DNA from: Octopus vulgaris
Lineage: Eukaryota
Reading direction: 5' to 3'
DNA: 64,000 nucleotides
NCBI GenBank assembly: GCA_951406725.2
Contig: OX597820.1
Span: 10,540,001-10,604,000, forward strand
The notes below the pieces were generated by a model. It saw only the letters and a program-made list of their open reading frames with translations, was not told the DNA's origin and made no database searches. Shown here in pieces: positions 5,283 through 63,996 of the stretch. Made by a program: the position numbers and the translations under genes. How positions within the stretch are numbered: the first letter of the stretch is position 1; each line of letters starts with the position of its first letter.

Positions 5283-5540
5283 TTATTGTTATTATTCACT
5301 CGTAACACAGTGTAGGTAAAAATGACCGGAGTCTTTAGTCGTCTGTCAAGTCACAACAAGGACTCCAGACAGATAATACTTTCCTTAACATGTGCGCTGT
5401 ACCCAATAAGGCTGAAGTGTGAGACGCTTACAGCACCTAGGTTTCCCAAGCGGTCACCCATCTAAATATTCACTACGTTCGATATTGCTTAACGTTGGTG
5501 ATCTGACGAGAACCGGAACTTTGAACGTGATATGGCCGTT
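5283..5540 (-). mobile_element. 5S rRNA head fused to an R4/Dong-like 3' tail (SINE3-like)
   Basis: On the minus strand, a 5S-like sequence is followed directly by TSALLGTAHMLRKVLSV, a UTR and a TAA-like tail. Confidence 0.7.
5426..5540 (-). pseudogene. 5S rRNA-derived sequence, diverged
   Basis: Reverse complement acggccatatcacgttcaaagttccggttctcgtcagatcacc..gttaagcaa..gatgggtgaccgcttgggaa.cc.aggtgctgtaagc follows the 5S rRNA consensus with many substitutions; no oligo-T terminator. Confidence 0.9.
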
Positions 5541-6635
5541 TATTATCATTATTGTTATTTTCGTTATATAATTTCAGAAACTTGAAAGTATATTTCTGAA
5601 AATTACGCTTTCGGGTGTTCTTATGCGCATCCGTCAATAATAGACTAAAATGGGTTTCTTTTACGTAATATTTTTCATAAATATTTTAATGTGTAGCATG
5701 AAAATGAAATTACATCTATGCAATCTATTGGTAAATAAAGGGGAAAAAACGTTAAATTTTGTAGTTTCGGTTCTTGCATGTTGATCATACATGGTGTGCT
5801 GTGTTTATTAAATGCGATACTTTGCTTTCATTAACGTAATATGCATTTTTAAAATTTATTATCTAGATATATAGTCGTTATTAACACTGACAGCATTTCT
5901 ATAATTCTATTAAGTTGACATGGATACATAACTTTCACGATTAAACTCTAATTCCATTGTTTGAAGAGTTAACAATTAATAAAATAAAGACAACCATATG
6001 TAACCACATGCAAACTATGTACAATATACGACCGGCCATATGAAATATAATTACAAACACACAAAAGCGAAATCATGGAAAACATTTCGTAATGAAAATT
6101 TACGAGTAAATGCGTAATATAAATATGAATTTCAAATTAAATTTGATTTCATTTCGTTAATATTTTGTATGGGGTTTCTACATAGGATAATTTTCTCTTC
6201 GATGTGTTTTATTTGGTAATTTCGATTTAAATCAAACAATATAGAATAGAGATTACACGATAATGCATTCCCATTTAGATTATCATAATATGATCCAAAG
6301 AATTTATTAAAACCATAGGGATATATCAAATCATATGTGATAGAGTTTAAAGTGTCGCCATTGCTTTTAGATTTCCAATTTACTCTAAAAACGAGAATAA
6401 AATAGACATTTATTTTCCATGATATAAACTAAACTAAATTGATGAAATAAATTTTCTGCTAAACAACTATTACCACTATGGTTATAACAGACTGTTATCT
6501 GCTGTTCTACCATCATCCCGCTGCAACTGAATCTTCAATATTTCTATGACTCTTATTCTGGGCAGCAACTTCTGTCTCTTTTCTCCTTTTTGATTCATGA
6601 TCTATACTTTCAACCTAGCAATGGTATTTCAACTG

Positions 6636-7437
6636 AAGGCGGCGAGCTGGCAGAAACGTTAGCACGCCGGGCGAAATGCTTAGCGGTATTTCGTCCACCG
6701 TTACGTTCTGAGTTCAAATTCCGCCGAGATCGACTTTGCCTTTCATCCTTTCGGGGTCGATTAAATAAGTACCAGTTACGCACTGGGGTTGATGTAATCG
6801 ACTTAATCCGTTTGTCTGTCCTTGTTTGTCCTCTCTGTGTTTAGCTCCTTGTGGGTAGTAAAGAAATATGTATTTCGTCTGCCGCTACGTTCTGAGTTCA
6901 GATTCCGCCGAGGTCGACTTTGCCTTCCATTTTTTCGGCGTCGATTAAATAAGTACCAGTTACGCACTGGGGTTGATGTAATCGACTTAATCCGTTTGTC
7001 TGTTCTTGTTTGTCCCCACTGTGTTTAGCCCCTTGTGGGTAGTAAAGAAATAGATATTTCGTCTGCCACTACATTCTGAGTTCAATATCCGCCGAAGTCA
7101 ACTTTGCCTTTCATCCTTTCGGGATCGATTAAATAAGTACCTGTTACGCACTGGGGTCGATGTAATCGACTCACCCCTTTATCTGTCCTAGTTTGCCCTT
7201 TCTATGTTTAGCCCCTTGTGGGCAGTAAAGAAATAAGAAACGTTAGCAAGCCGGGCGTAACGCTTATTGGTATTTCGTCTGTCTGTACGTTCTGAGTTCA
7301 AATTCCGCCGAGGTCTACTTTGCCTTTCATCCTTTCGGGGTCGATAAATCAACTACCTGTTGCGTACTGGGGGGTCAATCTAATCGACTGGCCCCCTGCC
7401 CCAAAATTTCGGGCCTTGTGCCTAGAGTAGATAAGAA
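6636..7437 (+). mobile_element. SINE family C tandem array (one head, 184-bp body units)
   Basis: Head ggcggcgagctggcagaaacgttagc; the tatttcgtc motif recurs near 6687, 6871, 7055 and 7271. Confidence 0.9.
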
Positions 7438-14301: not shown

Positions 14302-16107
14302 GTATGTATGGATTTTTTTATAAAATCGAGAAGACAATTTGGTTTGTATGGCTGATAAGAATTGAATGTGCTTTTCCTCTGCTCACTTTCCATATTGCTT
14401 GTGTCTACGAGACTTCATTTATCGAGAGGATGAAACGTTGACGCTGTCAAAAAACCATTTGCAACAGTCTACTTTTAAATCTATAATTCTTGCACATATC
14501 ATTTCGCGACTAAAGTCCACTTTTCATTATGTTATATTGAGATATGCGAGAAACAAAACTGGTTTAAGAGGGAGATCTGGTTTAGTTACGAGAGGAAGGA
14601 TAATGGTAAATTTATGTTTTACTTTCATGTGTTAGGTTTTGTTTCTATTCTTTTTTGTATTTCCTTGTTTCCATTGTTTTCTGAACACCATAATATTTTG
14701 ATGGTGAAGGACAACTGATCGATACTGAACGTCGAAGGTAATGGTTATGTAATATAAGCATGCTTGGTAGAGTTTAGTAATAAAGAATTTGAACTAGATG
14801 GATCAGACAGGAAATCAATGGAGCCAAGCTGTTGGTTGTGTTGGTAACAGTGTGGATGTTGCTACTGAGGATAATGGCAATATGGGATGAAATTGATAGC
14901 TGTGTCTATAATAGTAATATCCGTGGTGTTGGTGATGGCCGCGAGATAAAAAAAAATTTTGAGTTACCATAACATTTTGGCTCACAAACTTTTATAGTTA
15001 ACATTAAATGTATGGAGCGAGAATAGATACGATGGGTAGAAGCCTGAGGAGAGAGATCGATGTTTAGATCAGCAGAATCAATACACATATACATATATAG
15101 TAGCAAAGGGTGAAAGTGAATGTATCTAACTTCAGTATTTTTTATCGATTTTAACAAGAACGAACATATGTGTCGAATGATTTAGGAGATGTAAGGTTAC
15201 TTTCGACCAGGAACGGCTGGTACTCGTAAGGTGATTAATGGGTTTAAAACTATAAGAAGCAACGTTGGGTGGAATAATTTATCAGCCTGGTTATTTAATC
15301 AGTCTATTTAGAGTGTTCATTAATTAATTCTCTGGGTAAATTAGAAAAAAACAAACTTCATGTTTTATCTACAGATATGAGGAGATAAAATCTTTGAATA
15401 TTTGAAGACTTATGATAACAAATTCTATCATTTGTGACAGACGTTGACTAGGAGTGAAAAATGGACTACTCGCCATCACATTTAATTTGTAACTAAGTAT
15501 AATTGGTTGTCCAAGTCTATACTAATGTCTCAGCTTTAATGAGATTTTCAAATAAGTAACACAACCTAAATTAACAGTCGTTCTTTGTCCTCCTGTACAT
15601 TGCAGCTATTCTTTCAAATCGAAATATTCTACGACTATTGAAGTGTCTTCGATATCTTGGCTATCAAACTAACTGTTTGCTTGTCCTGTTAAGCACATGG
15701 CATTCACAAGACTTATTTCCCAGGTGTTCATGCTTCATATTCGGTACATCATTCCCAGGCTTTCTTTCAACAACCTGAGTAACTTGGAACTTATGAATGG
15801 AAAGCTTTATATCATACAAAACACGTGAAACAAGGGCTAACTAAAGGTCTGAAAGCAAGCATGGGCGTTTAGTAGAAACTTATGAAAATTATTTCGACAG
15901 CTAAAAGGTTAAACATTAATGAGTCACAAGCGAAGTGATTTGAACTATTGAGAAATTGTTGAGAATTGCTTAAAAATCAAATATATTGAATGTCTCAGGA
16001 ATAATTGTTTATAAAGCCTGTACGTACAAAATGATGGTACGATGTCATGTTTTACTGATAAAAAATATATAAAGTTGAGAACTAGCTATCTTGGTTGGGT
16101 GATGTGT

Positions 16108-16482
16108 GGAGGCGCAATGGCCCAGTGGTTAGGGCAGCGGACTCGCGGTCATAGGATCGCGGTTTCGATTCCCAGACCGGGAAGTGTTTATTGAGCGAAA
16201 ACACCTAAAGCTCCACGAGGCTCCGGCAGGGGATGGTGGTGTTCCCTGCTGTACTCTTTCAACACAACTTTCTCTCACTCTTACTTCATGTTTCTGTTGT
16301 ACCTGTATTTCAAAGGGCCGGCCTTGTCACTCTCTGTGTCACGCTGAATATCCCCGAGAACTACGTTAAGGGTACACGTGTCTGTGGAGTGCTCAGCCAC
16401 TTACACGTTAATTTCACGAGCAGGCTGTTTCGTTGATTCGGATCAACCGGAACCCTCGTCGTCGTAACCGACGGAGTGCTTC
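16108..16482 (+). mobile_element. SINE family B (tRNA-derived)
   Basis: ggaggcgcaatggcccagtggttagg..gtttcgattccc; flanking ggttg(g)gtgatgt target-site duplication. Confidence 0.92.
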
Positions 16483-26567: not shown

Positions 26568-26635
<68 letters not shown>

Positions 26636-26726
26636 TTTATTTTATAGAAGGAGTTCTACAGGACTAGAACTGTTTCATTTGAATGAAACAGTTCTAGTCC
26701 TGTAGAAGCTCCTTCTATAAAATAAA
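26636..26726. repeat. Near-perfect hairpin (about 44-bp arms) in a TA-flanked element
   Basis: tttattttatagaagg..ctgtttcatt TG aatgaaacag..ccttctataaaataaa. Confidence 0.9.
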
Positions 26727-26795
26727 TTAATTTACTCTACTATGTATTGAGTACCTTATTTACTGTGGTTAACCCCGACTCAACCCGGGACCTAC

Positions 26796-28127: not shown

Positions 28128-28239
28128 GTATATGTCTATATATATATATGTCTATATATATATATATATATGACCTCGTGTGTACCGTTGGCGATTTTTT
28201 CCCACTGTCTTCCCTTCTCGGGATCTTTCCTTCTCCTAT

Positions 28240-28274
28240 GTTTCCGACGAAGATCTCCGCTCGAAACGTTAAGC
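28240..28274 (+). ncRNA. Minimal hammerhead-like motif (U4C core) in TA-flanked element 28172-28377
   Basis: gttt CCGACGA a gatc-tcc-gctc GAAAC GTT aagc. Confidence 0.55.
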
Positions 28275-28424
28275 CCTCCTTCTTCCCTTCTTTCCTGAGC
28301 GTCCAATAATACTATATTTGTTCCACGTCCTCGCGTTGTTGTGTTTTTTTTGTGCTTTCTTGTTTGGATAAACTTGATATATATATATATATATACACAC
28401 AGGTATGTATGTACATATTCTTTT

Positions 28425-33458: not shown

Positions 33459-33771
33459 AATTGCAGCGTGAAAGGTGCTTATAAGCCATTTAAGAAATAC
33501 ACAAAAACCGTTAGATTCACATCAACATTTAAATTTAATTTGCCAAAATATTTTCGTCGCTTTGAGACGTGTTGCATTTTGTCAGAGAACAGGTCACAGT
33601 CTCAAAGCGACGAAAATATTTTGGCAAATTAAATTTAAATGTTGAAGTGAATCTAACGGTTTTTGTGTATTTCTTAAATGGCTTATAAGCACCTTCCGAT
33701 CGTTTTCGTTCCAGCACACCATCTCAGATCAGGTCACTTGTTATGCAAGTATATCTCCGTAATTCCGAAAA
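33456..33771. mobile_element. TA-flanked fold-back element with 97-bp inverted arms
   Basis: 33472-33568 is the reverse complement of 33599-33695. Confidence 0.85.
33578..33628 (+). ncRNA. Variant hammerhead fold (G3-C8 core)
   Basis: tttgtca GAGAACA g gtcac-agtctcaaa-gcgac GAAA atattt tggcaaa. Confidence 0.5.
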
Positions 33772-41438: not shown

Positions 41439-42040
41439 GAGCTGCCAGAATCGTTAGCACACCAGGCAAAATGTTTTGAGGCATTCCGTTCGTCTATACG
41501 TTCTGAGGTGTTAGGAGGCGCAATGGCCCAGTGGTTAGGGCAGCGGACTCGCGGTCATAGGATCGCAGTTTCGATTCTCAGACCGGGCGTTGTGAGTGTT
41601 TATTGAGCGAAAACACCTAAAAGCTCCACGAGGCTCCGGCAGGGGATGGTGGTGATCCCTGCTGTACTCTTTCACCACAACTTTCTCTCACTCTTACTTC
41701 CTGTTTCTGTTGTACCTGTATTTCAAAGGGCCGGCCTTGTCACTCCCTGTGTCACGCTGAATATCCCCGAGAACTACGTTAAAGGTACACGTGTCTGTGG
41801 AGTGCTCAGCCACTTACACGTTAATTTCACGAGCAGGCTGTTCCGTTGATTCGGATCAACCGGAACCCTCGACGTCGTAACCGACGGAGTGCTTCCTCCT
41901 CCCCTGAGGTAAAATTCTGCCGAGGTCGACTTTGCCTTTCACCATTTCGGAGTAGAAAAAATAAGTACCAGTTGAATACTGGGGGTCCAAGTCATTGACG
42001 TAATCTCTCACCTTAAAAAATTGCTGGCCTTCTGCCAAAG
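41439..42040 (+). mobile_element. SINE family C interrupted by SINE family B
   Basis: TSD ctgaggt on both sides of the family B copy. Confidence 0.8.
41514..41903 (+). mobile_element. SINE family B, full length
   Basis: Nearly identical to the 16108 copy. Confidence 0.93.
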
Positions 42041-45417: not shown

Positions 45418-45500
<83 letters not shown>

Positions 45501-45720
45501 TTAAAATTACTAAGTCTCTCTAAAAGAGAACAACGGCAGCGTTCCCGGAAAATATTAGTTATCGCCATACTAATATGGCATTCTTATAAAAATAAGAATA
45601 AAGCTGACCGCTTATTAGCTCCATGAGGCCATCGCCTTAAGTTAGCTATTTGATACACAAACTGTATCCATATAACCTTTGAACAAGGGAGGTCAGTCGC
45701 TCCACACTACTTGGCCGGCA

Positions 45721-45762
45721 GCTACAGACGCGTTTCGGAGTATTGCCCCTTTTCAATGCAGC
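45721..45762 (-). ncRNA. Hammerhead ribozyme (U3-A8 variant), inverted copy
   Basis: Reverse complement of the 46183 motif, with one G-U pair in stem II. Confidence 0.7.
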
Positions 45763-46182
45763 GTAGCCAAACCAGTAGGTGTCGCTTCCGACAATCTCTG
45801 TTCAAAGGTTTTATTTACCTAGCTTCGGTGGAATACATCCACTTGTTTTCAATAATAGAAATATTAAAATTACTAAGTCTCTCTAAAAGAGAACAACGGC
45901 AGCGTTCCCGGAAAATACAGTTTGTGTATCAAATAGCTAACTTAAGGCGATGGCCTCATGGAGCTAATAAGCGGTCAGCTTTATTCTTATTTTTATAAGA
46001 ATGCCATATTAGTATGGCGATAACTAATATTTTCCGGGAACGCTGCCGTTGTTCTCTTTTAGAGAGACTTAGTAATTTTAATATTTCTATTATTGAAAAC
46101 AAGTGGATGTATTCCACCGAAGCTAGGTAAATAAAACCTTTGAACAGAGATTGTCGGAAGCGACACCTACTGGTTTGGCTAC

Positions 46183-46224
46183 GCTGCATTGAAAAGGGGC
46201 AATACCCCGAAACGCGTCTGTAGC
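46183..46224 (+). ncRNA. Hammerhead ribozyme (U3-A8 variant); repeated at 46546-46587 and 46909-46950
   Basis: gctgca TTGAAAA gggg-caata-cccc GAAAC gc GTC tgtagc; palindromic ACGCGT in helix III. Confidence 0.75.
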
Positions 46225-47606
46225 TGCCGGCCAAGTAGTGTGGAGCGACTGACCTCCCTTGTTCAAAGGTTATATGGATACAGTTTGTGTATCAAATAGC
46301 TAACTTAAGGCGATGGCCTCATGGAGCTAATAAGCGGTCAGCTTTATTCTTATTTTTATAAGAATGCCATATTAGTATGGCGATAACTAATATTTTCCGG
46401 GAACGCTGCCGTTGTTCTCTTTTAGAGAGACTTAGTAATTTTAATATTTCTATTATTGAAAACAAGTGGATGTATTCCACCGAAGCTAGGTAAATAAAAC
46501 CTTTGAACAGAGATTGTCGGAAGCGACACCTACTGGTTTGGCTACGCTGCATTGAAAAGGGGCAATACCCCGAAACGCGTCTGTAGCTGCCGGCCAAGTA
46601 GTGTGGAGCGACTGACCTCCCTTGTTCAAAGGTTATATGGATACAGTTTGTGTATCAAATAGCTAACTTAAGGCGATGGCCTCATGGAGCTAATAAGCGG
46701 TCAGCTTTATTCTTATTTTTATAAGAATGCCATATTAGTATGGCGATAACTAATATTTTCCGGGAACGCTGCCGTTGTTCTCTTTTAGAGAGACTTAGTA
46801 ATTTTAATATTTCTATTATTGAAAACAAGTGGATGTATTCCACCGAAGCTAGGTAAATAAAACCGTTGAACAGAGATTGTCGGAAGCGACACCTACTGGT
46901 TTGGCTACGCTGCATTGAAAAGGGGCAATACCCCGAAACACGTCTGTAGCTGCCGGCCAAGTAGTGTGGAGCGACTGACCTCCCTTGTTCAAAGGTTATA
47001 TGGATACAGTTTGTGTATCAAATAGCTAACTTAAGGCGATGGCCTCATGGAGCTAATAAGCGGTCAGCTTTATTCTTATTTTTATAAGAATGCCATATTA
47101 GTATGGCGATAACTAATATTTTCCGGGAACGCTGCCGTTGTTCTCTTTTAGAGAGACTTAGTAATTTTAATATATATATATATATATGTGCGTGTGTGTG
47201 TATATAGTAGAAATATGTTACGAAGAGAAAATATTAAATACACGTGGAAATGTAAGGGTAAAATATGAAAGATCAACGAAAATGCATATTGCAAATAGAA
47301 AAAGGCTATTTATGACATGTAACGACAAATATATATATTTAGATTGACTGAGGTAGTAATACGAGTCATAAAAGTCATTATTATGAGATGATTATAAGAT
47401 GATAATAAATAAGAGAACAACACGAACCAATGATTTACGCAAAGCTATTCATCGTTTGAATATATATATCAACCATAATAATAATAGTGATTATTACGAA
47501 ATGGCGTAGCATAACCATTAATTCCTTTTATATACATATAGCTTTACATAGAATAACCTGATAGCAAGCCGGTAAATGCTTCGAGGAATCCCTTTATATT
47601 TACAAT

Positions 47607-47765: not shown

Positions 47766-47812
<47 letters not shown>

Positions 47813-47813
<1 letters not shown>

Positions 47814-48150
47814 GAGGTGCAATGGCCCAGTGAATAGGGCAGCGGACTCGCGAACATAGGATCACGGTTTCGATTCCTAGACCGGGCGTTGTGAGTGTTT
47901 ATTGAGCGAAAGCACCTAAATCTCCACGAGGCCCCTCATCTTTCTCTCACTCTTACTTCCTGTCTCTGTTGTACCTGCATTTCAAAGGGTCAGCCTTATC
48001 ACACTCTGTGTCACGCTGAATCTCCCCCAAGAACTACGTTAAGGGTACACGTATCTGTGGAGTGCTCAGCCACTTGCACGTTAAATTCACGAGCAGGCTG
48101 TTCCGTTGATCGGATCGACTGGAACCCACGTCGTCGTAACCGAGGGAATG
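47813..48150 (+). mobile_element. SINE family B
   Basis: Matches the 41514 copy with an internal deletion. Confidence 0.9.
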
Positions 48151-48214: not shown

Positions 48215-48411
48215 ACACATTTATATATATATATATATAGAATGGTTGTATACTGTCAATCTAACAAGAACGTGACAGTAGGGGGTACACCACCGTTGTT
48301 TAGCTCTAGGAGGCATCGAACACCTCCTGACAGCTTCGACACATTTTTTCCCTGTGTCCTTATATACATATACGAAGGGGAGACAAACACCCCCAACCGC
48401 CGGAACTGCAT

Positions 48412-48455
48412 CTAGGGACACCGTGTTTCAGGATCATTGTCCTTCATCGGCCTAG
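48412..48455 (-). ncRNA. Hammerhead ribozyme (U4C core), inverted copy
   Basis: Reverse complement of 48754-48797. Confidence 0.72.
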
Positions 48456-48753
48456 AGTAGCAGACACCGGTCGGCTGGTGATATTTGCCTGGACTTCGTA
48501 TCTGTATATAAGTAAACTCAGTGAAGTCTATTCACTGATTATCAAAATACGAAATATTGAATTTCTAAACCTCTCGTAGAGACATGTACGGTGGTGGGGC
48601 GATAGAATGGTTGTATACTGTCTATCTAACAAGAACGTGACAGTAGGGGGTACACCACCGTTGTATAGCCCTAGGAGGCATCGAACGCCTCCTGACAGCT
48701 AAGACACATACGAAGTCCAGGAAAATATCACCAGCCGACCGGTGTCTGCTACT

Positions 48754-48797
48754 CTAGGCCGATGAAGGACAATGATCCTGAAACACGGTGTCCCTAG
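48754..48797 (+). ncRNA. Minimal type I hammerhead ribozyme (U4C core)
   Basis: ctagg CCGATGA agga-caatga-tcct GAAAC acggt GTC cctag. Confidence 0.75.
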
Positions 48798-49037
48798 ATG
48801 CAGTTCCGGCGGTTGGGGGTGTTTGTCTCCCCTTCGTATATGTATATAAGGACACAGGGAAAAATGTGTCGAAGCTGTCAGGAGGCGTTCGATGCCTCCT
48901 AGGGCTATACAACGGTGGTGTACCCCCTACTGTCACGTTCTTGTTAGATTGACAGTATACAACCATTCTATCGCCCAACCACCGTACATGTCTCTACGAG
49001 AGATTTAGAAATTCAATATTTCTTATATATATATATT

Positions 49038-49069
<32 letters not shown>

Positions 49070-49100
49070 TATATATATATTTATATATATACATACTCAC

Positions 49101-49164
<64 letters not shown>

Positions 49165-52141: not shown

Positions 52142-52394
52142 TTCGAAACGTAGAGTAGATGAAACCTTAGCGACTGAAGAAGGGGTTTTTTCGTTGTGTT
52201 AACTGTCCTGTACTCCATTTTTTGTTGTTTTTAAAAGAATGTCCTGTTCCTTTGGTTTGTGTCTATGTTTTCGTTACTCTATGTGTTCGACGTCCCTTTG
52301 GTGTCCTGTACTCATATATGCGTGTATATGTACATGTAGAGGTAGATACACACATATATGTTTATATATATATGCATATGTTTTATTTCTTTTA

Positions 52395-52453
<59 letters not shown>

Positions 52454-52730
52454 GAAACGTGGAGTAGATGAAACAAAGGCGACTGAAGAAGGGGAATTTT
52501 CCTTGTTTTGTATGTCCTGTACTCTATTTTTTCGTTGTTTAAAAAAAATGTCAATTTCCTTGGTTTTGTGTTTATGTTTTTGTTTCTCATTGTGTTCGAC
52601 GTTTTTTTGGTGCCCTGTACCCATATATGCATGTATATATACATGTAGGGGTAGGTACGTACATATATGTATGTATATATGCATATGTTTTATTTATTTA
52701 TTAATTTATTATATATATATATTTCTATTA
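52142..52730 (+). repeat. Two diverged tandem copies of a roughly 309-bp unit, each ending in TA-rich sequence
   Basis: ttcgaaacgt.gagtagatgaaac..gcgactgaagaagggg at 52142 and 52451. Confidence 0.8.
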
Positions 52731-53010
52731 ATATATAATCATAATTAGCTAATAAGTGGTGATTATTTTAATGAGTTGAATTAACAGAAAATGTTAGACA
52801 TAAAATATATATATACTAACCGTGGAAAAAAATTATTAATTTAGTACATATATTAGGAGTCAATAAGATATATTAAAAAATAATGGAAGGGACGTAATCA
52901 AGATGAACCAAGTAATTTCTCTAGATATATAGAAATATTTGCGATTATTTCATATTTATATATCCCCATTTCCATTAATATAGAATCATAATTAGCTAGT
53001 AAATGGTGAT

Positions 53011-54275: not shown

Positions 54276-55565
54276 GAGGGACGTTCAATAAGTAATGCCT
54301 CTGACCCATTTGCAGTTGTTTGATCTAGCTGAAATTTTGAATGTGTAATCATTTATATCTCTATAGAGTAAGTGACAAATTACAGCTCTGAACTAATTGT
54401 GGTTTCTGATTTACAGGTGTTTGAACTGAGTCAAGAGTGAAATGGAGCCTGTTGAGTGTCGAGCAGTGATCCGGATTTTGTATTTGAAAGGACGCACACC
54501 GCGGGAGACTTTTGATGAAATGAAAGTAACTTATGGTGATGATGCCCCATCATATGACCTTGTAAAACGCTGGGATCGTGAATTCAAACATGGTCGGAAC
54601 TCTGTGGAAACAGCTCCCAGATCTGGTCGCCCCCTTCTGCCATTGATGAGACATCTGTCCGTCATGTTGAGGCTGCCATTTTGGGGGATGGACGCATAAT
54701 TATTCGCCAAATAGCCCATGAAATCAAGATTCGTACCGGGTCTGTGGAAACTATCATTCATGACCATTTGCATATGCAAAAGGTGTCTGCCAGATGGATT
54801 CCCAGGTTGCTCACGCCTTTCCAGAAGCAAGAACGCGTCGAGTGCTCGAGGATGAATTTGGAGATGTGCCAAGAAGATGAGTGAAAAGTTTTCAAAAGAC
54901 TGATTACACAGGATAAAACCTGGGTCCATCACGATGATCCAGAGACCAAAGCCCAGTCAATGCAGTGGAAGCACTGTGACTCACCCCCTCCAAAGAAGGC
55001 AAGGGTGCAGCCCTCCGCTGGCAAGGTCATGCTCACAGTCTTCTGGGACCAGGACGGAGTAGTGATGACAGATTTCCTGGCAAAGGGTACCACAATTACA
55101 GGAGCCTATTATGCTTCACTTTTGAGGAAATTAAGAGAAGTTATCAAAATCAAGAGGCGGGGCAAGATCAGCAAATGCATCCTCCTCCTGCAGGACAACG
55201 CTCCGGTCCACAACTCGCGTGTCGCCAGATCAGAAGCACAGGCGTATGGCTATGAACTCCTCCCCCATGCCCCCTACTTTCCTGACATTGCACCCTCTGA
55301 TTTTCACCTCTTCCCAGCCATGAAGTTTTTTTTGAAAGGAAAGCATTTCCCAGATGATGCAGCCTTGATTTCTGAAGTCACGTTGAGGTTGGAGGACCAA
55401 GCTGGGTTCTTCTACAAAAACGGTCTCCAGAGCCGCATCAAACGATGGGAGAAATGCGTAACTCTGGGTGTTTCCTATGTAGAAAAAGATTAATAACTGT
55501 GCCAAGTTTCGTTGCTCTACTGCTATGGGAAGTGAGTCAGGGGCATTACTTATTGAACGCCCCTC

Positions 55566-57127: not shown

Positions 57128-57602
57128 ATACAAAATAAGAACATGGAGGAATAGATTCCTTTCAATCATCAACTTCCAAATAATACCAATTCATATAATT
57201 TATTAACTAATTAATTAAATTAAATAGGAACATCCAAATCCAACAGAATAAGACAGAATAAAACAATATACATCAATTATTATCTTTCTTATTGATGTAT
57301 ATTGTTTTATTCTGTTGGATTTTGATGTTCCTATTTAATTTAATTAATTAGTTAATAAATCATATGAATTGGTATTATCTGGATGTTGATGATTGAAAGG
57401 AATCCATTCCTCTATTTTCTTATTTTGTATTATGAATTTGAGGTAAAACATTTTACCTTCGCCCATATAATACAATAAATGAACTGATTGCATTGCAATT
57501 GTAAGCATTTATGTATTAGACTTTTGGGTACTTCACTGGCAGTATATTGGATAAATGATATCCCATAGTGGATTACACTCATAACCCCTATCTCACTTTG
57601 TA

Positions 57603-63650: not shown

Positions 63651-63996
63651 GGAAGCACTCCGTCGGTTACGACGACGAGGGTTCCGGTTGATCCGATCAA
63701 TGGAACAGCCTGCTCGTGAAATTAACGTGTAAGTGGCTGAGCACTCCACGGACACGTGTACCCTTAACGTAGTTCTCGGGGAGATTCAGCGTGACACAGA
63801 GAGTGACAAGGCCGGCCCTTTGAAATACAGGAAGTGAGAGTGAGAGAAAGTTGTGGCGAAAGAGTACGGCAGGGATCACCACCATCCCCTGCCGGAGCCT
63901 CGTGAAACTTTAGGTGTTTTCGCTCAATAAACACTCACAACGCCCGGTCTGGGAATCGAAACCGCGATCCTACGACCGTGAGTCCATTGCACCTCC
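63651..63996 (-). mobile_element. SINE family B
   Basis: Reverse complement of the 41514 copy. Confidence 0.92.

Follow-up and report, generated by a model that had tools for sequence, protein, structure and literature searches.

Anatomy of a fold-back hammerhead repeat

The window, by which we mean the whole 64-kb stretch of DNA that was analysed, holds at 48237-49022 a 365-base element that is a real, multi-copy hammerhead repeat, set as two head-to-head arms between TA runs. Its layout comes from comparison of the window with itself, and unit coordinates are counted from the predicted ribozyme cut. The locus is described from the assembly sequence, and other copies are known from contigs of public runs. 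Arm A (48237-48709, ribozyme sense on the minus strand) measures 473 nt, or 1.30 monomers, and extends from its 5' end at the central joint (unit 73) to its 3' end at unit 180 (177-180, given a shared TAT). Its second lap appears as a direct repeat at offset 365 (48602-48709 versus 48237-48344; 108 nt, 94%, 6 differences), which bears out the roughly 1.3 copies of a preliminary description. Arm B (48704-49022, ribozyme sense on the plus strand) is an inverted, 5'-truncated copy of about 320 nt that covers unit about 277-365 and then 1-231, with its 3' end at AATATTTC. The two arms meet 5' to 5' at 48704-48709, an imperfect 6-nt overlap in which 5 of the 6 letters fit both, and two substitutions lie beside this joint at 48701-48702.

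The self-comparison gives two inverted matches, one pairing 48704-48971 with 48237-48505 (269 nt, 97.8%) and one pairing 48864-49026 with 48547-48709 (163 nt, 96.3%). Unit 181-231 forms a one-sided extension of 51 nt (48972-49022, plus strand), present at the end of arm B and missing from arm A. The element sits between a left (TA)n target run at 48222-48239 and an imperfect right one at 49024-49161. Both of its ends are 2 nt from a run of at least five TA units, the definition used here for the edge of a TA run, and the inverted, TA-flanked partial copy reported earlier is thus upheld. The monomer also contains an internal 19-nt inverted repeat (48359-48377/48494-48512) that belongs to its predicted rod; arm B starts inside the second arm of this repeat. 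All three additional hairpins named in the preliminary description are present, and one of them, AGGAGGC/GCCTCCT, is intact in two of three copies.

Away from the joint, arms A and B differ at 6 substitutions and 1 indel. At three positions (48396, 48491, 48661) the arms agree with each other and disagree with 71-88% of run-contig depth. They point to one template variant, and we read them as the outcome of one fairly recent event.

The monomer has the features expected of a non-LTR retrozyme: its GC content is 45% (below 50%), it is non-coding (longest ATG ORF 51 aa sense and 57 aa antisense), and there is no LTR pair. It is also a head-to-tail unit within the 150-450 bp range of retrozymes and bears a type I ribozyme. 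This copy has one ribozyme per strand, fewer than the at least two consecutive ribozyme-bearing units by which a copy, as distinct from a family, is classed as active (Li et al., 10.64898/2026.07.22.740005); given this layout, it cannot release a monomer. Read-through RNA of the whole element is predicted to be 85% paired and would form a duplex of about 270 bp that hides the ribozyme.

Hammerhead motifs on both strands

A descriptor scan over the 64 kb, with 10 shuffled windows as control, recovered six type I hammerhead motifs, two in the 365-base element and four in a neighbouring 363-bp element; each shuffled window gave 0-1. The arm B motif (48753-48798, plus strand) has the core CCGATGA at 48759-48765, a U4C variant, and a predicted cut after 48792. 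Its stem I is 6 bp (48753-48758/48793-48798), stem II is 4 bp with the loop CAATGA, GAAA lies at 48780-48783 and stem III is palindromic. The identical motif in arm A (48411-48456, minus strand; predicted cut after 48417) has its core at 48450, and the claim of a hammerhead on both strands is confirmed. Three helices surround the core and the cut opens stem I, as in type I ribozymes. A TAC bulge next to stem I is common to the 365 and 363 families.

Measured against the strict core consensus as listed in PMC3088659, 12 of 13 positions fit, and position 4 is C in both arms. Over 48417-48450, the contigs of four runs show no substitution at or above 5% and one 1-nt deletion, at 48421. U4C is a trait of the family as far as compared, because no core substitution reaches 5% in the four runs. 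It is a known natural variant, considerably lowered in activity in vitro and sufficient for a viroid in vivo (PMC3088659). We regard the 365 hammerhead as a core variant with predicted self-cleavage. Stems I and II form in the circular fold with P 0.86-1.0. An Rfam search over the window returned no ribozyme at gathering or E-value thresholds. A profile built from both monomers and a ribozyme scan with relaxed settings failed to add a third member to the family within the 64 kb. Hammerheads with U4C and U3-A8 cores are natural lineages missed by Rfam.

Kinship with the neighbouring 363-bp element

The sister element occupies 45496-47173. Its left arm (45496-45917, ribozyme on the minus strand) is about 1.2 units long and is joined 5' to 5' to a right arm (45915-47173, ribozymes on the plus strand) of 3.5 tandem units. 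The plus-strand hammerheads have a U3-A8 core and predicted cuts after 46218, 46581 and 46944. Both 3' ends of the element lie at unit 229-231 in (TA)n, and its tandem units differ at 0-2 positions in 363. Since three tandem ribozymes occur on one strand in near-identical units, in keeping with the rule of at least two consecutive ribozyme-bearing units, this element, unlike the 365 copy, could release monomers. Unit 173, where the left arm begins, coincides with a further AATATTT word close to the position that corresponds to the end of arm A.

The two families had been presented as unrelated and devoid of sequence similarity, and neither statement holds. Anchored at the predicted cut, the monomers align end to end with 211 of 347 positions identical (61%). 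The alignment scores 188 against 64.6 +/- 11.4 for dinucleotide shuffles (z 10.9), none of 500 scoring as high. Low-complexity bias is an unlikely cause of this score because the shuffles preserve dinucleotides. The signal persists without the ribozyme (z 8.4) and outside both the ribozyme and the best block (unit 11-189, z 5.7). Unit 190-278 is best conserved (57 of 88 identical, z 8.2), and unit 279-315 does not rise above the shuffles (z -1.0). As controls, alignment to the opposite strand yields z 1.3, and none of 29 rotations scores above 92. Judged by sequence, the 365 and 363 families are colinear homologues, that is, diverged relatives, and for this reason their near-equal unit size can be put down to descent. 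The earlier suggestion of a shared mechanism and a size constraint survives in its first part, given that the two families have in common 5'-joined arms, an end site and 3' ends that run into (TA)n. The size constraint is superfluous because homology suffices.

Folded as circles, as the preliminary description had proposed for the 365-bp monomer, both monomers form a rod that runs from stem I to a branched end. The z-scores (60 shuffles each) are -9.0 sense and -4.5 antisense for the 365 monomer, and -5.3 sense and -5.6 antisense for the 363 monomer. In the former, stems I and II are formed and the rod closes across the predicted cut site, with strand bias. When the 365 structure is mapped onto the 363 sequence, 73 of 109 pairs still pair, with 15 two-sided changes, versus 39-55 when the mapping is slid by 1-3. 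Between the two MFE folds only 37 of 117 pairs are identical and 77 lie within 2 nt. Of the 52 pairs in a consensus fold, 16 show two-sided changes, two sequences being weak ground for covariation. Despite 39% divergence, stems I and II and their loops have been retained, with two-sided changes.

3' ends and a conserved block

The best-conserved block, unit 190-278 in both families, corresponds to 48504-48592 (minus strand) in the 365 element and holds the 3'-end site at unit 231 (48551). Inside it lies the hairpin TCAGTGAA/TTCACTGA (48518-48538), the core of which has one two-sided change between families. The end of arm B is at unit 231 and that of arm A at 180, and the two 363 arms stop at 229 and 231; the three ends at unit 229-231 fall at one aligned AATATTT word inside the block. 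All four arm ends are at most 4 nt from a TA run; for the remaining window positions, the share within 10 nt of a run is 2.45%. The 3' end of arm A lies in a 19-nt A/C-rich stretch that is predicted to be unpaired, and has TAT in common with the flank. From this placement of the ends, we propose unit 190-278 as a candidate start signal for reverse transcription (RT), and the shared end block as a candidate motif pointing to the retrozymes' partner.

The one-sided extension measures 51 nt at the 365 element and is absent at the 363 neighbour. By analogy with Penelope-type insertions, the 51 nt of arm B are a candidate "tail" (PMC11167929, PMC8557442). Later loss of 51 nt at the TA run of arm A could be another origin of that arm's end. 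We also considered copy-back of arm A onto itself and rejected it, because arm B has 51 nt that the arm A end lacks, though arm A may have lost them later.

Other copies in public runs

One monomer (48336-48700) was compared with the contigs of 4 runs out of 24 listed. The monomer stretch occurs in 20 of the 24, from 10 studies under 4 organism labels, none recorded as RNA. The four runs gave 2016, 1440, 148 and 33 matching contigs, the first two being probable DNA runs. These contigs comprise many variants with mixed flanks, as a dispersed multi-copy repeat would. The joint that leads from 48700 back by 365 to 48336 is found in all four runs (4, 1, 1 and 1 contigs), so that the further genomic copies with 365-base periodicity on which the preliminary description had staked its reading do exist. 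The bridging letters at these joints are mostly unlike the 48237-49022 locus.

Among the 24 of 219 loose ends listed, matches run out into mixed AT-rich flanks at 48551 (unit 231) on 14 contigs of run X4 (agreement 0.54) and on 2 of run X20. The same listed ends include one X20 contig at 48547 and two long contigs that stop at 48543. Inversions exist in other copies too, because X20 contains an opposite-strand joint at 48458/48515 (1 contig, depth 7.5) and, among the 24 of 219 ends listed, a loose end at 48382 that is on the opposite strand by eye. Summed contig depth gives no copy count and was never used as copy number. It has a minimum at 48492-48517, just past the end site, and rises at 48544-48570 and again at 48596-48621, a profile that fits fixed 3' ends with 5' truncation. 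The 24 of 219 loose ends listed contain none at 48602, the second site. What weak signal there is for this site comes from the depth step at 48596-48621 and from a single X20 contig that matches from 48605 onward. We discounted contigs with a start at precisely 48602 as a sign of a second end, given that the polymorphic site 48632, 30 nt further on, would break contigs there. Exact-pattern scans of metagenome and viral contigs gave 0 matches.

The run contigs also revealed an additional repeat that has only the 3'-end block and the TACTGTC/GACAGTA hairpin in common with the monomer (48547-48640) and is followed by unlike sequence. Among the ends listed, its loose ends behind 48622 number 15 contigs in X4, 3 in X10 and 2 in X20. 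Depth in X20 is 420-640 over 48557-48621 and mostly below 120 elsewhere. This block-sharing repeat is a candidate sister family or autonomous partner. Separately, the listed ends from X1, X4 and X10 include a subfamily that diverges beside the ribozyme (48397-48424), with the first stem I base after the cut changed.

In X20, a probable RNA run, nine A-to-G differences cluster at 48628-48667 on the plus strand, antisense to the ribozyme, in 1-2 contigs at depth 3.5-7. In neither probable DNA run, one of which has the organism label of X20, do these differences exceed 0.04% of depth. The cluster is absent from X10, the X20 depth is low, and the X20 animal is unmatched to the DNA runs. This pattern resembles what A-to-I hyper-editing would leave in read-through RNA spanning an inverted copy.

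Further repeats in the window

Near-perfect palindromes at 33472-33695, 57128-57430 and 26633-26729 lie near or abut TA runs and had no ribozyme motif in our scans; they are possibly head-to-head short 3' ends of other Penelope-type elements. A 309-bp two-copy repeat split by (TA)n (52142-52737) and a separate TA-flanked stretch (28180-28380) contain separated hammerhead-like core pieces (CTGAAGA or CCGACGA, and CGAAACGT), and both failed the descriptor scans. A mariner-type transposase remnant in two frames occupies 54582-55493 (PF01359, E 4.6e-24 for 54885-55490). The minus strand at 5425-5543 is 5S rRNA-like, above the Rfam gathering score at 60.2 bits, and is probably a pseudogene or the head of a SINE. 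A dispersed SINE-like repeat at 47802-48150, between both ribozyme elements, has copies at 16096-16482, 41504-41896 and 63651-63985, and a 184-bp three-copy tandem of another dispersed repeat lies at 6685-7235. In its SINEs and its load of microsatellites, the window resembles octopus DNA.

A probable route of insertion

We think it probable that the 365-base insertion arose when non-LTR retrozyme RNA was copied into a TA microsatellite by a Penelope-like RT/endonuclease acting in trans. Source loci with at least two tandem ribozymes would be transcribed and the RNA cut to 365-nt monomers, which may be ligated into circles. A Penelope protein would then cut both strands of (TA)n, each free 3' end priming cDNA synthesis within the RNA. 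Start sites would fall mostly at unit 229-231 in the conserved block and, once here, 51 nt upstream in the unpaired A/C-rich stretch. Judging from the 1.30-unit arm, synthesis would continue beyond one unit; because it ran past one unit, the template is expected to be circular or multimeric. The two cDNAs would stop variably and be joined 5' to 5' over a few shared bases, a process that would give the fold-back structure seen in the assembly. The 363-bp neighbour, a diverged relative, may have taken the same route.

By analogy with published insertions, the fold-back is better read as a known Penelope-type insertion structure than as a property of the RNA. Insertions of Penelope-like elements (PLEs) show a partial tandem, an inverted 5'-truncated copy, a tail of 30-40 nt at one end and a bias for (TA)n (PMC8557442). 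At 51 nt, the candidate tail of the 365 element is longer than those described, which speaks against this reading. Both the 365 element and its 363 neighbour consist of a partial tandem with an inverted 5'-truncated copy at its 5' end. The target is AT-rich or (TA)n, as for Penelope-mobilised insertions, and octopus PLEs that prefer (TA)n include Naiad_Obim, Naiad_Ovul and Hydra-1_Obim (PMC8557442). PLE-type motifs have dual ribozymes 100-700 bp apart on opposite strands (PMC4209133). Work with purified PLE protein showed cleavage and extension of the two strands of AT-rich DNA, with RT beginning at two positions inside the RNA; the distance between these positions is the length of the tail (PMC11167929). 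Hammerhead mutants leave PLE insertion in vitro unaffected (PMC11167929); because cleavage is dispensable there, a linear multimer would serve like a circle.

The 365 unit itself is distinct from an autonomous PLE in that an RT plus GIY-YIG ORF is absent. No PLE ORF was noticed by eye in the window's ORF list, from which 3 ORFs were compared with Pfam. Eleven exact short motifs, a weak test, gave one match to the PLE consensus files of PMC8557442, in an unrelated ORF-like stretch. Of nine predicted Xenopus retrozymes, eight remained uncleaved in vitro (10.64898/2026.07.22.740005).

Alternative explanations

In a first rival reading, the repeat is no independent RNA parasite. Internally deleted copies of PLE pLTRs would spread through linear read-through multimers or be amplified locally as DNA; the ribozyme would be weak or idle, and a circular stage would be missing. 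The U4C core would agree with this, as would the indifference of in vitro PLE insertion to hammerhead mutation (PMC11167929) and the proposal by Li et al. of local amplification of PLE termini (10.64898/2026.07.22.740005). However, the helices measure 6 and 4 bp and stem II is not preceded by a bulge, as in a canonical retrozyme and unlike the PLE minimal type (PMC4209133). In addition, stems I and II and their loops are conserved with two-sided changes over 39% divergence, and the rod is strand-biased and bridges the cut site. We consider this origin unlikely. Rather improbable as well is movement of the same RNA by a LINE-type RT, in which the inversion would reflect twin priming, with the second strand primed on TAT microhomology at unit 177-180. 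Arguing for it, TAT is common to the arm A end and the flank, the X20 joint 48458/48515 is a short inverted piece adjoining the main body, as twin priming gives (1 contig), and the recently active LINEs of O. vulgaris are more numerous than its PLEs (PMC13282606). Counter to this, both 363 arms end at one site (unit 229 and 231), which random-site twin priming does not predict. A poly(A) or repeat tail is absent, and 231 nt separate the main end from the ribozyme cut, which places this end within the RNA.

An origin at the DNA level, either as a foldback or MITE-like element with TA target duplication or as a satellite inverted by template switching at the 19-nt inverted repeat, has little to recommend it. 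The inverted, TA-flanked ends, the start of arm B within one arm of the internal inverted repeat and the mariner transposase remnant at 54885-55493 could be cited in its favour. Yet the arms are unequal, with outer ends that differ by 51 nt, and arm B is not a simple copy-back; joints vary between copies, and the ribozyme motif and strand-biased fold are conserved. Two further possibilities seem to us scarcely credible. Had two unrelated families converged on one size and layout, their differing cores (U4C versus U3-A8) and the lack of any 365-363 match reported by blastn of the window against itself would be accounted for, but not the colinearity (z 10.9, or 8.4 without the ribozyme) at the same offset from the cut, for which the strand and rotation controls are negative. 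Long palindromes are a recognised artefact of assemblies and libraries, so a fold-back artefact deserves mention. It is opposed by the 6 substitutions and 1 indel between the arms off the joint, by their offset and unlike flanks, and by the 363 neighbour, which has the same build with a different joint.

Copying of retrozyme RNA by a Penelope-like enzyme is thus the account that we favour. It suggests a broader picture, which we offer tentatively and would not yet bet on. The families may be circular RNAs that a dimeric Penelope enzyme copies without a free 3' end: cDNAs from both cut strands would start at the unit 190-278 block (229-231, with another start near 180), go round the circle and meet head to head. 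With this block, a cis-signal that ties animal retrozymes to a mobilising enzyme would be recognised for the first time, and the fold-backs would seed long dsRNA for A-to-I editing in host transcripts.

Comparison with known systems

Retrozymes, inverted copies or fold-backs of PLEs, tails and opposite-strand ribozyme pairs are already published. We found no description of an octopus or cephalopod retrozyme or of the anatomy of a retrozyme insertion, which subscription literature, repeat databases or supplements may hold. The accessible text of the O. vulgaris repeat paper and its supplement does not mention ribozymes (PMC13282606), and that of the giant squid paper only counts 235 hammerhead matches (PMC6962438). 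A 2020 review describes animal retrozyme repeats as being without a conserved motif that points to a partner (PMC7761336), and a 2026 preprint leaves the mobilisation mechanism for elucidation (10.64898/2026.07.22.740005). Against this background, copy ends fall in one block that two families of 61% identity have retained, and the insertions bear the Penelope signature. The shared candidate start site makes the question of the animal retrozyme mobiliser testable, and it provides an exact RNA site and target for an in vitro PLE assay, including a circle as template.

Non-LTR retrozymes were defined by Cervera & de la Pena (2020), who described mussel circles of 350-390 nt units and named PLEs as the candidate mobiliser (PMC7229834). 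Like these metazoan retrozymes, the 365 family has a short, non-coding head-to-tail unit (365 nt, GC 45%) in many variant copies, and a type I hammerhead with helices of 6 and 4 bp and a palindromic helix III; its circle is predicted to be extensively paired with the ribozyme still folded (PMC7229834). It departs from them in its U4C core, as far as the family was compared, in being inserted as head-to-head arms whose 3' ends are fixed and lie in (TA)n, and in that this copy has fewer than two ribozymes per strand and its circles and cleavage are predicted (PMC7229834). The words "inverted", "tail" and "microsatellite" have 0 matches in the main text of that paper (PMC7229834).

The likeness to insertions of PLEs (Naiad, Hydra, Neptune and Penelope/Poseidon; Craig et al. 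2021, PMC8557442) lies in the partial tandem, the inverted 5'-truncated copy, the extension at one end only, and the (TA)n target with no readable TSD. The 4+1+4 palindromic helix III recalls several Hydra-clade ribozymes (PMC8557442). In contrast to PLEs, the unit has no RT/GIY-YIG ORF and is 365 nt rather than 2-4 kb long; its ribozyme has canonical helix size and no bulge before stem II, its extension is 51 nt and its 3' end lies 231 nt past the cut (PMC8557442).

For vertebrates, retrozymes have been proposed to be non-autonomous PLE derivatives (Li, Clavereau, Pollet 2026, 10.64898/2026.07.22.740005), a relationship and a size range that our reading shares. The evidence in that work is co-occurrence and pLTR homology; its available text covers no molluscs and contains no analysis of insertion structure or end sites (10.64898/2026.07.22.740005).

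The closest biochemical parallel is Poseidon of Anolis carolinensis, studied in vitro (Frangieh et al. 2024, PMC11167929), which likewise has two end sites downstream of the cut and within the RNA, an AT-rich target with both strands extended, and one site in an A/C-rich unpaired stretch. In Poseidon the cut is at +26 and the sites lie 111-118 nt into the ORF, about 85-92 nt past the cut, whereas those of the 365 element lie 180 and 231 nt past it (PMC11167929). Unlike Poseidon, the 365 element is non-autonomous, and its sites are deduced from copy ends only (PMC11167929).
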